NCBI GenBank assembly: GCA_965223425.1
Contig: OZ245003.1
Location: forward strand, 2,112,001 to 2,176,000
Length of the DNA stretch: 64,000 nucleotides
Origin: Nitrosopumilus sp.
GTDB lineage: Archaea; Thermoproteota; Nitrososphaeria; Nitrososphaerales; Nitrosopumilaceae
Reading direction: 5' to 3'
Below the pieces are notes generated by a model. That model did not search any database. It was given only the letters and a program-made list of their open reading frames with translations, and was not told the origin of the DNA. Below are positions 20,209 to 23,986 of the stretch, in pieces. Position numbers and translations under genes: made by a program. Numbering within the stretch: position 1 is the stretch's first letter; each line of letters begins with the position of its first letter.

Positions 20209-22103
20209 AATTATCTATCAACAAAAAATTGTCTTAAAAAGTTATGGGTAAATATCTTGACTGTGTATAGTCCAAAAAGTAGTTCACCCCTTCTCCGAGT
20301 ATGTAAAGTCGATAAAGAACAGGCGCATCGACCTTACTGTCACAGGAAACAAGGGTGTGTGGGTCTGGAAGAAAAGGCTAGGAAGATACACAAGTTTGGA
20401 ACACCCCAACAACATGAAACTAAAGAAATCACAGGTACATGGATAGTACGAGAAAAGAGAAAGGGCCGTCTTGCCAACACCAGATAGCCCAGTCCATGAA
20501 AGTGTCAGTACGATGGGTCCAAAAGCTGTGGGCCAGGCACAGAAACCACATGATACAGGACATATCACATCCTGCACTGATGGGAAGGCCCAAAAACGGC
20601 ATGCCAGGACGCAGGGAGCATTCTGCAGTCCTTGCCGTACGGTGCCAGGAGCACCTGGGTGCTGCAAACATACAAGATGCAGTCAGGGATCAGACCGGAA
20701 TAAATATCCCCCACAACACCATTCACAAAATATTGAGGGACGAAGACATGGCATCAGAGGAGTCAAGGAAGGGCAAAAAGCGAAGATGGGTTCGCTGCGA
20801 GCGCACCTACTCAAACTCCCTGTGGCATACTGACTACAAGCTGCTTGATGACGGCAGGTGGTTCCTGTGCTACGAGGACGACGCCTCCAGGTTCGTGACA
20901 GGATACGGCATGTTTGATAATGCCACGACAGAAAACGCACTCAGGGTGCTGGATCAGGCCATAAGGAACCACGGCAAGCCTGCGGCAGTCATGACGGATC
21001 ACGGCTCGCAGTTTTATGCAAACGAAAAGGAGGCCAAGGCAAGGGGGGCGCAAGCAGGTTTGAAAAAAGGCTAGTCGAGCTTGGAATAAAACAGATTCTT
21101 GCAGGAGTAGGACACCCGCAAACCAATGGAAAGCTGGAGCGCCTGCACGGCGAGATACAGCGGAAGCTTCCGGAGTTTGTGGCAATCATGATGCGCAAAA
21201 GCGATCCGGTGGACCTGCTCATGGACTGGTACAACAACCGCAGGCCCCACATGTCACTGAACAGAAAGCAGAGGGAAACGCCTGCACAGGCCTTTGTGCG
21301 CACCTATGTTAACCACCGGGCGTGTTGCGGCAACGCATCCCAGTTGTATTTCCGATCCGTGCCTACTTGTACGGTGCAAGATTTATAGCTAACGCTGGAG
21401 AGATAATTTGGTGGGATGACATGCCAATCACCTCTGGCGTGCCTTTTCCATCTTGGCAAGCTTGCGTTTGTACAGTCCCTCGTTTCGGGACTCGTATGGT
21501 GTCCTGGTCTTGAGTATGTGCCACGCTATGGTTATCATCTTGTTGGCGACAGTCACTATGGCAAGTGCATGCTTGCCTGCATGTCTTCTCTTGGAAGACT
21601 CGTATACTGCCTTCATTCTAGTATCATGAATTACCGCCGTGTTTGCAGCCTCGCACATAACCCAGTTGACCAGACTGTTGGTGTCAAGCTTTTTGATTCT
21701 GCCCATGTAGTTTTTGTCGCCTGACTGGTGTATCGCCGGACACAGGCCTGCCCATGAGACGAGATTCTTTGGGGTCTCGAATCTGACAATGTCGGCTATC
21801 TTGACTGCAAGCAGCAGTGCAGAGTAGATTCCCATGCCAGTCATGCTGGCAAGAAGTTTTGCATCCTCGTTTAGCGATGCCTCCTTTTCCAGGTGTTCAT
21901 CCATGTGTCTTATCTCCTCGGTAAGGCTCCTTATCTGCCGGGCACACTGACTCGGTACTATTTCGTCATGTACGGATCCCAGGCTTGCAGACTCCATCTG
22001 TTCTACGGCCTTTATGGCATACATCTCAGAGGCATCGATTTTCACATCGTATCTGTCAAGCAGGCTGTGGACGCGGTTTATCACGCGTGTCCTGTCCTGT
22101 ACG

Positions 22104-23235
22104 TAGTGAATTGGATTAACAATCGCTCACAAAACAGACAACATTATTCAACCACAAGATCTAGATCCCAGTGTATGGCAGAATCCGCATGAAATACAAC
22201 AATTCTGCAATACCGGCAGACAGAAGGTTCCTGTCCGGCGTCTCCAGTGCGCGCCTGCGCAGCATGCAAAAAAAGGAGACAGATCCCAGGGCCGCAGCAA
22301 GGCTGCTGGCATATGCCATGCGCAAGGAGGGCATGTCCATACGCCAGATATGCAGGGCCCTCAACAGGTCATACTCTACAGTACGGGACTGGCTTGTGCG
22401 CGCCGCACAGCTTGGCACCTGCGGCAGGTACGACATCAAAAACAAAGGCGCGCCAAACAAGCTCGATCCGGAACAGACAAAGCAGCTGCGCGCAGACCTG
22501 CTGGCAGGCCCGCGCAGTTGCGGGTTCGAGTCCGGAGTGTGGACGGCACCGCTGCTGGCCGCACACATCAGAAAAAAGTTCGGCGTGCAGTATGCCACTG
22601 TCAGCATATATGACATACTGCACAGGATGGGCTTTTCGTGCAGAAAGCCGCGTCCAAAGCACCCAAAATCAGCCTCAGAATCAGAGAAAAAAGAGTTTAA
22701 AAAAAAAGCAGGGGAGATAATCCGGAGCCATCCAGACCATACGGTGATTACAGTTGATGAGGCCTCCTTTATCATTGGGTGGAATACCAAGAACGGGTGG
22801 TACCTCAAGGGCAGGCCCGTCACCACTCCAGTCAGCCTGTCGCGCAAAAGGTTCTACTCGTTTGGGGCGCTGTACGACGGCGGCTTTGACTGCAGGTTCT
22901 ATGCCAAGGCCAACAGCTACAGCTTTGTGGACATGCTCGGACACCTGCATCTCAAGCACGGCAAGATCATCGTCTTTCTTGATAACGCATCATACCACAA
23001 GTCAAAGATGGTCAATGATTTTGTCGACTCGTATGACGGCGACATAGTCCTTGTTTACTTGCCCGTGTACACCCCGGAGCTGAATACCACGGAGGGGCAG
23101 TGGAGGCTGTTAAGAAGGGCCACTGCAAACGTGATGTATGAAAGCACAAAGGTGATGAAGGAATCCATATGGACAATGCTGGATAGACGTGAGGTCAGGA
23201 TAACAAGGATGAGCGGTTATTTATCCTAGTCACTA
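22104..23235 (+). mobile_element. IS630-family element (inner layer), 1132 bp, apparently intact
   Basis: 26-bp imperfect TIR tagtgaattggattaacaatcgctca / tgagcggttatttatcctagtcacta, flanked by CG on both sides. Confidence 0.9.
22189..23229 (+). CDS. IS630 DDE transposase
   Basis: HTH, WT..L motif, VDEAS, LDNASYH, YTPELNTTEGQW. Confidence 0.93.
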   Translation: MKYNNSAIPADRRFLSGVSSARLRSMQKKETDPRAAARLLAYAMRKEGMSIRQICRALNRSYSTVRDWLVRAAQLGTCGRYDIKNKGAPNKLDPEQTKQLRADLLAGPRSCGFESGVWTAPLLAAHIRKKFGVQYATVSIYDILHRMGFSCRKPRPKHPKSASESEKKEFKKKAGEIIRSHPDHTVITVDEASFIIGWNTKNGWYLKGRPVTTPVSLSRKRFYSFGALYDGGFDCRFYAKANSYSFVDMLGHLHLKHGKIIVFLDNASYHKSKMVNDFVDSYDGDIVLVYLPVYTPELNTTEGQWRLLRRATANVMYESTKVMKESIWTMLDRREVRITRMSGYLS

Positions 23236-23986
23236 CGGTCCTGATCCTCTGTCTGACCATGGCCCGGACTCCTCTTGTGTCAGCTGACGGCACATAACAC
23301 TCTGGTATTGAATCCATCCTCAATACGCTTGCTATCTTTTGTGCGTCAATCTTGTCTGTCTTCTTTCCCGTCTTTGCAATTATTGCCATCTTGTAGGTGT
23401 TGGCAAGCTTTATGTCGATTCCATGTCTCTCAAAGGCGCCGTATGTGATGTTCCACATGTTGCCCGTCGTCTCGCATGCTGCCTGACATCTTCTGGCAGA
23501 ATACCTGAGTGCCGTCTGTTCTGCGAATTTGTCTGCATCTGAGACGGTGTTTTGATACTGGCCAGTATGCAAAACCTTTCCCTTCCAGTCCATGACGCAT
23601 ACGTCACATTTTCTCTTTCCAATGTCTATTCCTATGCTGATTGTTCCTTTGCTCATCCTTTCTATCACCTCCTTTCGGATCTTTGACGGATCGGAAGCTG
23701 CATACACCTATCAGGGCGCAAGGCCCAGTCACACAGCAGCTCGGATTGCCCCATTCAAGCTCAAGGGCGCATGGCCCATATGCATACAGGGGTCGATTCA
23801 TCACTACAGCTACGACGAGGTGGTTATCATGTGTTCAAGATGCCGCCAAAGGGAGAAATAGTCGTAGATGAGCAGACAGGGGAGGAATATGAAACCAAGT
23901 AGCAGGGGGGTGAACTACTTTTAGAATCCCACAATTACGTAACTACGTAGATAAAAGTTATATGCGTAGACTAGGGATTTTAGATA

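Follow-up and report, generated by a model that had tools for sequence, protein, structure and literature searches.

The window analysed here, the whole stretch of 64,000 nucleotides at C1:2112001-2176000 of a Nitrosopumilus sp. genome (the source genome, G000), carries on its minus strand, at positions 21301-23837, an insertion sequence (IS) of the IS110 family. All feature positions are given in window numbering. Our analysis indicates, with a probability that we put at about 0.85, that the element belongs to an RNA-guided group of insertion sequences found in ammonia-oxidising archaea, that this copy is defective and nested, and that a bridge RNA is encoded upstream of the transposase gene. 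Covariation, seen when the window copy is compared with its copies in the same genome and with relatives in other archaea, strongly points to a two-loop guide RNA in the 5' non-coding end.

Structure and distribution of the predicted RNA

We have used the structure of 18 aligned and diverse 5' ends to build a covariance model (R1), to which the window copy scores 137.6 bits. The predicted RNA has five helices: a closing stem (P1), a CCCC/GGGG outer stem with a GGGC-n5-GCCC hairpin inside it, and a GAGCTGC/GCAGCTT outer stem with a second GGGC-n5-GCCC hairpin. Over the 18 sequences, 95.4% of the 504 cells were standard pairs and 11 of the 28 pairs had changed on both sides; in P1 there were six pairs with compensatory changes. 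None of 500 shuffles reached the same level, and when the partner strand was slid by 1-3 columns the pairing was 29-49%. The hypervariable parts are the unpaired strands of both loops, even between near-identical copies.

Relatives were collected by protein and by nucleotide sequence. Three loci from Nitrosopumilaceae assemblies, ~70% identical, came from the protein search. With a conserved 24-nt piece of the 5' end, 33 loci were reached, nearly all of them in Nitrosopumilaceae or Cenarchaeum assemblies and one on a contig labelled Poribacteria, and in a protein search over whole genomes 30 of the 401 genomes of the family (G000 included) had homologues at E <= 1e-60. In 25 of the 29 homologue loci, with protein identities going down to 37-42%, the R1 RNA sits just upstream of the transposase gene, and three of the four loci that missed it are cut by contig ends. 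In the pattern-derived and own-genome loci the model matched 41 times in 41 loci. Across the phylum, matches came from 6 of 151 sampled genomes, that is, 4 of 19 in the family of the window, G000 itself and one of three in one other family. The model found no such RNA at the six loci examined of other IS110-family elements (~30% identity) in the same genome. An Rfam scan of 21200-23950 with E up to 10 returned five chance-level matches below the gathering scores and no bridge-RNA family.

The Poribacteria-labelled contig (L088) holds an RNA copy with a truncated donor loop; mis-binning or transfer among sponge symbionts could explain it. G000 also has other IS110-family transposase genes (C1 785397, 1500638, 2046356, 2373768 and others; L038-L049), with 26-31% identity to the protein of the intact copy described below (P0001) and without the R1 RNA.

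Ends, copies and insertion sites

The locus is made of three nested mobile elements, an IS630-like element inside the IS110-family element, which is itself inside an IS481-like gene. By aligning 11 left and 4 right junctions, the ends were set at ...YTTG/AACACATG... and ...AACATAGG/TG (the slash marks the boundary). In the window the left flank reads ggcggcatct-TG and the right junction CATAGG-TG-cgcacaaagg. These boundaries are backed by target sites that lack an insertion and by about eight copies of near-identical sequence in G000. The 12-bp sub-terminal inverted repeats match at 11 of 12 positions and are spaced 7 nt from the left end when the core is included (5 nt without it) and 3 nt from the right end. 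The non-coding ends measure 179 nt (5') and 125 nt (3'). A sequence-only reading of the window had already proposed the coordinates of the element, its target, its donor junction and its TG core, together with 12-bp repeats at 7/3 spacing and ends of ~180 and ~125 nt. Every one of those strings stands at its place on the minus strand and, since the ends are now fixed by copies and empty sites, these assignments are correct. The domains and junctions also bear out an archaeal IS110/IS1111-type element with a TG core, as had been supposed there; the break of the transposase gene by the IS630-like insertion had gone unmentioned.

The two fragments of the transposase gene matched PF01548 (6e-23) and PF02371 (8.5e-19), the DEDD RuvC-like N-terminal domain and the Transposase_20 C-terminal domain that define the family. 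In the case of the intact copy, the protein P0001 scored 212.6 bits against NF033542, 'IS110 family RNA-guided transposase', for which the cut-off is 140. The transposase is distantly similar to the solved bridge recombinases ISCro4 and IS621 (E = 2.2e-7 for IS621). The insert that splits the gene is 1132 bp long, is flanked by duplicated CGTA/TA context, and its terminal 30 nt are found again at more than 20 places of the genome. As this insertion destroyed the recombinase gene, the window copy is unable to move on its own, and it could be moved only if the single intact copy supplied the enzyme. Its RNA gene is complete and both its ends are intact.

There are about eight copies or fragments of the element in G000, 98-99% identical. 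The sole copy with an unbroken gene is at C1:2063371-2064777 (1407 bp, 364 aa, P0001). For two types of insertion site both flanks could be read. The window copy and the one at C1:850532-853072 occupy type A, ggcggcatCT-TG-cgcacaaagg, which is situated towards the 3' end of IS481-like transposase genes; each of the two is in a diverged gene of this kind. Type B, cactAGCT-TG-TTGCATAACACG, holds the intact copy and another at ~C1:273469-276303, and corresponds to the terminus (terminal repeat) of a multi-copy DDE_Tnp_1 (IS4/IS5-like) element, for example at C1 836973, 2463559 and 293242 (L130:70-100). Uninterrupted type B copies read tAGCTTGTTGCATAAC, with one TG only. Altogether G000 has 12 empty B-like 11-mers (AGCTTGTTGCA), three empty type A 12-mers and four occupied B left junctions. 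Empty sites have a single TG and filled sites have a TG at both junctions, indicating that there is no target duplication beyond the core. The two type A copies carry an identical IS630 insert at the same position; their 3' halves are nearly identical and their 5' halves differ at about a dozen positions.

Guide segments and their DNA partners

We have compared the unpaired strands of both loops with the DNA that each would be expected to read. For the 25 elements with confidently placed right ends, an average of 4.32 of the 7 non-core positions of the right target guide pair with the cognate target, against 1.84 with non-cognate ones (0/5000 permutations). The match is perfect over 8-9 nt in L101, L103, L105, L108, L119 and L079, and the imperfect cases L060, L078 and L090 become fully paired if G-U is allowed. 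The left target guide, the 7 nt preceding AATGGGG, reproduces the last five nucleotides of the left flank plus the core, with 166 matches out of 222 non-core positions over 37 distinct guides; permutation gave 126.4 +/- 4.5 (maximum 142, 0/5000). With 54 unique element/flank pairs the mean was 6.19 of 8 versus 4.32.

The donor loop behaves in the same manner towards the ends of the element. The right donor guide (the strand following GAGCTGC) agreed with the left end at 128 of 180 positions, versus 98.1 +/- 4.3 in permutations (0/5000), and the paired states found were TGTGT/AACACA, TGTAT/AATACA, TGTCT/AAGACA, GCTTC/GAAGC, GCTTT/AAAGC and TAAAG/CTTTA. In all the right ends found, their last 5 nt and the core together give the left donor guide, 7 nt following the second hairpin (six variants; the relatives have ATAGATG, ATGGATG, ATAGGAG, ACAGGTG and ATGAGTG, each fitting its own right end), a match that is partly circular because the right ends were located with this guide and the inverted repeat. 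The 5' end offers, in sum, what a bridge RNA gene would have: a non-coding RNA with a target loop and a donor loop, whose guides covary with target and ends. What sequence comparison demonstrates here is the anatomy of the element, the predicted structure and, for three of the guide segments, covariation with their partners in the DNA.

Could the agreement between guides and flanks come instead from target DNA copied into the element, or from flank and element being inherited together? Some of the matching pairs are indeed kin (the L060, L078, L090 and L092 copies, and the CAZIHR copies), and the window copy and C1:850532-853072 share both site type and nested IS630 insert. However, the matches extend over 37 distinct left guides, and the guide signal spans many genomes and a deep protein divergence, with identities down to ~40%. 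Besides, within a covarying structure, fixed positions of the loop read one half of the target on one strand and the other half on the opposite strand, which is the known bridge-RNA geometry and is not expected from sequence capture. We consider capture or common descent extremely improbable as the source of the signal.

Within G000 the guides can be set beside the two site types. Those of the copy at C1:850532-853072, GATCTTG and GTGTACGTA, fit type A. Those of the window copy, GAGCTTG and GTATGCATA (also given as TATGCATA), fit type B, as tAGCTTG and, after a one-base skip, TGCATA.

Several observations weigh against a bridge RNA of this design, besides the circularity mentioned above. The window copy occupies a type A site (CATCT-TG-CGCACA), to which its guides match at 5 of 7 left positions only; from the sequences we infer that it was mobilised in trans by the RNA-protein complex of another copy, or that copies have recombined with each other. 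The right target guide needs a skip of 1 nt after the core in the genome's own type B, in L112 and in L114/115, and its matches are poor in L102 (0/7), L095 (2/7) and L059 (1/7). The permutation figures overstate the significance because related elements were treated as independent, with the counts reduced to distinct guides. When the window RNA was folded alone the two-loop structure was not recovered, and the stability of the fold was not out of the ordinary (z = -1.48; 19 of 200 shuffles did equally well). The sequence of the element was present in no RNA sequencing run. Finally, the circle junction had no match in the assembly and none in public contigs, which does not by itself show its absence. 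The contigs, from four DNA runs, were short unitigs that break at the variable guide positions, and they contained two joints unrelated to the circle and no junction of right end with left end.

A longest-match scan free of any assumption on position was also made, using for each element its own reconstructed target in both orientations (n = 24). The 5' end matched its own target over longer runs than expected, 6.67 versus 5.30 and 6.12 versus 5.05 (0/3000 each). At the 3' end the values were 5.12 versus 4.87 (242/3000) and 5.54 versus 5.23 (205/3000), which is not significant. This bears on whether the element might be a canonical IS1111 member, with a functional seekRNA downstream of the transposase gene and some other role, such as translational control, for the 5' structure. 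The long sub-terminal inverted repeats, the GL-P----SG motif and the long conserved 3' non-coding end would agree with it, and a downstream RNA is the usual arrangement of IS1111 elements (Siddiquee 2024, PMC11187229; Durrant 2024, PMC11208160). Nevertheless, it is the 5' end that has the target and donor guides, the 3' end lacks significant matching to its own target, and the relatives with a short 3' end (L107, L117, L119 and L112) retain the 5' RNA. A downstream seekRNA appears highly improbable to us.

The sequence-only reading had proposed an RNA-guided recombinase, an idea that the guide covariation upholds, and had, as a possibility, distributed the guides between both ends of the element, a map of which little remains. 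It placed a target guide, ATCTTGC (21376-21382), in an RNA loop of the 3' end, and a second target match, CTTGCGC (23716-23722), in the 5' end together with the donor match ATAGGTG. The last of these is the left donor guide; it is positionally conserved and changes with the right end in relatives. CTTGCGC proved to be the loop and 3' strand of the conserved donor-loop hairpin. Its counterpart reads TATGCGC, TACGCGC or CTCGCGC in relatives with differing targets, so this hairpin varies independently of the target, and the resemblance to site A is chance. ATCTTGC is composed of the tail of a conserved TATAAAT and the start of a spacer that differs freely between relatives; at this spot, none of the relatives in the 6-mer listing agrees with its own target. 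The strings do exist at those places, and among the near-identical copies the seventh base of ATCTTG[T/C] is C in the two type A copies and T in the two type B copies, like the base after the core in their targets; the scan also had a weak, non-significant trend at the 3' end. However, this association involves two lineages only. The right-hand guides that had been sought without success do exist, one in each loop, so that the four guide segments are all accounted for by one two-loop RNA of the 5' non-coding end. Guides do covary with targets in homologues, but the segments concerned are those of the 5' end. Guides split between the ends are, in our view, very unlikely.

T/C differences at element positions 1336 and 1392 had also been considered as guide covariation with types A and B; this was rejected, the relatives showing no such relation.

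Returning to the upstream bridge RNA, the 179-nt non-coding end would give rise to an RNA of ~125 nt. Its closing stem would surround two internal loops; in each, an outer stem would hold a 4-bp GGGC/GCCC hairpin with one guide on its 5' side and another on its 3' side. Of the two target guides, the 5' one would pair with the top strand rightwards of the insertion point and the 3' one with the bottom strand leftwards of it, both extending across the TG core. The donor guides would recognise in the same way the left and right ends of the element itself, once these meet in a circular intermediate. A tetramer of the DEDD/serine recombinase carrying the RNA would, by analogy with IS621 and ISEc11, exchange strands at the TG core, and the circle would be inserted without target duplication. 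The production of the RNA, its binding by the recombinase and the chemistry of strand exchange are what we infer here.

Two groups of relatives have unusual left ends. In the Cenarchaeum loci L068 and L075 the 8 nt preceding the left inverted repeat are TTCATTTG, just as in the left target guide of the copy itself; these loci lack the usual terminus AACACATG, and their right donor guide has lost its match. These left ends could be the product of an aberrant recombination or of a terminal deletion. In L077, L079, L096 and L098 the inner hairpin of the target loop is enlarged by ~18-20 nt, and their left ends (ATTGGATG, ATTAGATG and AATGGATG) have no match to the right donor guide.

A conserved feature of the right end

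The right end has a conserved motif, YAGCGNNAGYTWTAAA, at -94..-79 from the terminus in 16 of 24 distinct right ends; it is TATA-like and possibly an outward-facing archaeal promoter. About 25 nt past the TATA, at a constant -59..-61 from the right end, there is a segment, ACGGATCGGAA, whose complementarity to TTCCGATCCGT (21350-21360 with 23686-23696) is perfect over 11 nt. TTCCGATCCGT is the 3' strand of stems P4 and P1 (the donor and closing stems). The segment covaries with its partner, reading ACGGATCGGAA, AGACCGGAA, GATCAGAAG, GGATCAAAA, GTGGATCAGAG, GGCTGGAAAT and TCGATCGTA in different elements. The longest complementary run had a mean of 6.81 versus 5.45 (0/5000), and the predicted duplex energy was -13.96 kcal/mol versus -10.05 +/- 0.58 for permuted partners (0/3000), better than the local stem in 16 of 21 cases.

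In addition to the bridge RNA proposed above, a second, extended RNA specific for the circle might be made. The TATA-like motif would start a transcript ~60 nt before the right terminus, and with such a start the transcript would, in the excised circle, cross the junction into the bridge RNA and the transposase gene. The unconserved spacer after the motif is promoter-like, and the constant distance, the covariation and the duplex energies are in line with the idea, which we take as tentative and rather on the unlikely side. The same holds for its corollary that the 5' segment of this transcript, ACGGAUCGGAA, pairs with UUCCGAUCCGU and displaces the weaker local closing stem. That the full guide RNA exists only after excision, with the right-end promoter firing across the junction and 21350-21360 replacing the closing stem through 23686-23696, seems to us somewhat more doubtful still. 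The mismatches between right and left ends have no G-U bias (23 wobble-compatible versus 29 of A-C type), and an inverted repeat acting at the level of DNA, for example as a second protein-binding site, fits the 11-nt complementarity equally well. RNAalifold, applied to 19 junction-joined sequences, picked the local stem P1 and not the pairing with the right end; P1 has its own compensatory changes, and the motif is missing from 8 of the 24 right ends. Were the circle-only reading true, the bridge RNA and the leader of the transposase gene would take up a conformation found in the circle alone. Such a topological switch would make RNA structure depend on excision, and perhaps activity or translation as well. 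The only bacterial counterpart known to us is the split -35/-10 promoter formed at the junction.

Table 1. Features of the element and its surroundings, in window numbering.
Feature	Position	Strand	Basis or detail
Element body, AACACATG to AACATAGG, IS630-like insert included	21303..23835	-	copies and boundaries
Target left half and core, GGCGGCATCT-TG	23836..23847 (core TG 23836-23837)	-	11 left ends compared at the junction
Core TG and target right half, CGCACAAAGG	21291..21302 (core TG 21301-21302)	-	junction comparison
Left sub-terminal inverted repeat, ATGATAACCACC	23819..23830	-	changes in step with right repeat in relatives
Right sub-terminal inverted repeat, GGTGGTTAACAT	21306..21317	-	changes in step with left repeat in relatives
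Predicted bridge RNA core: closing stem P1, target-binding loop, donor-binding loop	23682..23807	-	covariance model R1
Putative right target guide, GTATGCATA	23779..23787	-	9 nt before first inner hairpin; complementary to core and right flank
Target-loop inner hairpin, GGGC-CATGC-GCCC	23765..23777	-	helix 3; two pairs with compensatory changes
Putative left target guide, GAGCTTG	23756..23762	-	5 nt of left flank and TG core; target top-strand sense
Putative right donor guide, TGTGTGAC	23728..23735	-	its TGTGT complementary to ACACA of left end
Donor-loop inner hairpin, GGGC-CTTGC-GCCC	23714..23726	-	helix 5; three pairs with compensatory changes
Putative left donor guide, ATAGGTG	23705..23711	-	last 5 nt of right end and core
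Transposase N-terminal fragment, DEDD_Tnp_IS110	23234..23656	-	start ATG 23654-23656; GGAGGTG motif 23666-23672
Transposase C-terminal fragment, Transposase_20, GLCPAI-QSG serine motif	21428..22101	-	stop codon 21428-21430
Conserved motif AGCGTTAGCTATAAAT, B recognition element (BRE)/TATA-like, pointing to right end	21381..21396	-	16 of 24 distinct right ends
Segment ACGGATCGGAA, complementary to TTCCGATCCGT (23686-23696)	21350..21360	-	constant position, covariation
IS630-family element, open reading frame 22171-23229	22102..23233	+	Pfam DDE_3; NCBIfam IS630, 205 bits; bounds from intact copy
IS481-like (rve) transposase gene hosting the element	20439..21300	+	Pfam rve; NCBIfam IS481, 106.9 bits, below cut-off

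Significance and relation to known systems

We have checked the element against the traits by which the IS110 and IS1111 groups are told apart. Its sub-terminal repeats, of 12 bp, are within the 7-17 bp of IS1111, and the top-strand match comes 5' as in that group, the right target guide preceding the left. The transposase has the motif GLCPAIRQSG, corresponding to GL-P----S/TG, and a length of 364 aa versus the 330-350 aa of the IS1111 family (PMC11187229). In each of the 25 loci where it was matched the RNA is upstream, and the 3' end lacks significant target matching; as the downstream position that defines IS1111 was looked for and failed, this is not a canonical member. From the IS110 subgroup (IS621-like) it has the upstream RNA, but the guide order is reversed and the repeats are of 12 bp instead of absent or 2-3 bp. 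On these sequence traits we would class it in the IS110 family, with an upstream RNA and with ends and a guide order like those of IS1111.

The recombinases of ammonia-oxidising archaea would thereby gain a fully mapped candidate bridge RNA, with structure, four guides, core and ends, in a group of organisms for which genetic tools are scarce. The mixture of IS1111 traits (long sub-terminal repeats and guide order) with the upstream RNA of IS110 bears on how RNA genes move between ends. In the same way, near-identical copies of one genome with different target loops and two site types amount to a natural reprogramming series on a small scale. The practical value is modest, since the mechanism is known from bacteria, the NCBI family name of the protein already says 'RNA-guided' and a preprint survey may cover the family. 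Specifically, 662 archaeal IS110 recombinases are on record (Vaysset et al., 10.1101/2024.06.21.599552), and a 2026 preprint (10.64898/2026.10.21.760802) with models of IS110-adjacent RNAs across bacteria and archaea may already contain this one. We found no description of a bridge RNA in ammonia-oxidising archaea in the literature, although the supplements to the 2024 papers or to the 2026 preprint may list archaeal IS1111 members or ones with an upstream RNA.

The closest comparison in mechanism is IS621 (Durrant 2024, PMC11208160; 8WT6 and others). Both have an upstream RNA with two internal loops, one for target and one for donor, and a recombinase of the DEDD and Tnp-domain family. Bridge RNAs use their left guides for the bottom strand and their right guides for the top strand, with the core in each (Durrant 2024, PMC11208160), and the guides predicted here follow this geometry, with a 2-nt core in both. 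Unlike IS621, the right guide is 5' and the left guide 3' in each loop, the order being reversed in IS621, and the core is TG instead of CT. The 12-bp sub-terminal repeats, the archaeal host, the long conserved right end and the distantly related protein are further differences.

With the IS1111 elements ISEc11, ISPa11 and ISKpn4, which use seekRNAs (Siddiquee 2024, PMC11187229), the element shares sub-terminal repeats, the GL-P----SG motif and targets in repeated sequences. As in IS1111 seekRNAs, the top-strand match is 5' of the bottom-strand match, the reverse of what is found in the IS110-type ISEc21 and IS621 (PMC11187229). Unlike these three elements, its RNA is upstream rather than downstream and a full donor-binding loop is evident. 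Exceptions of IS1111 type with upstream or long double non-coding ends have been noted, namely ISMtsp17, ISHvo10 and ISAcp5 (Siddiquee 2024, PMC11187229). They resemble the present element in being of IS1111 type with an upstream non-coding region or long ones at both ends, for which the sections of that paper covered here contain no RNA structure or guide map (PMC11187229); this likeness is one of layout.

Insertion into other mobile elements, here a DDE_Tnp_1 terminus and IS481-like genes, has parallels in IS4321/IS5075 and ISEc21, with different sequences and hosts. IS4321 and IS5075 target the terminal repeats of Tn21-type transposons, and one of the IS1111-type exceptions above, ISHvo10, is archaeal by its name. 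ISEc21 targets a conserved site in IS3 transposase genes (Siddiquee 2024, PMC11187229). Set among these systems, the element is an ordinary, well-documented further example of RNA-guided recombination, with a hybrid layout and an unexplained feature in its right end.

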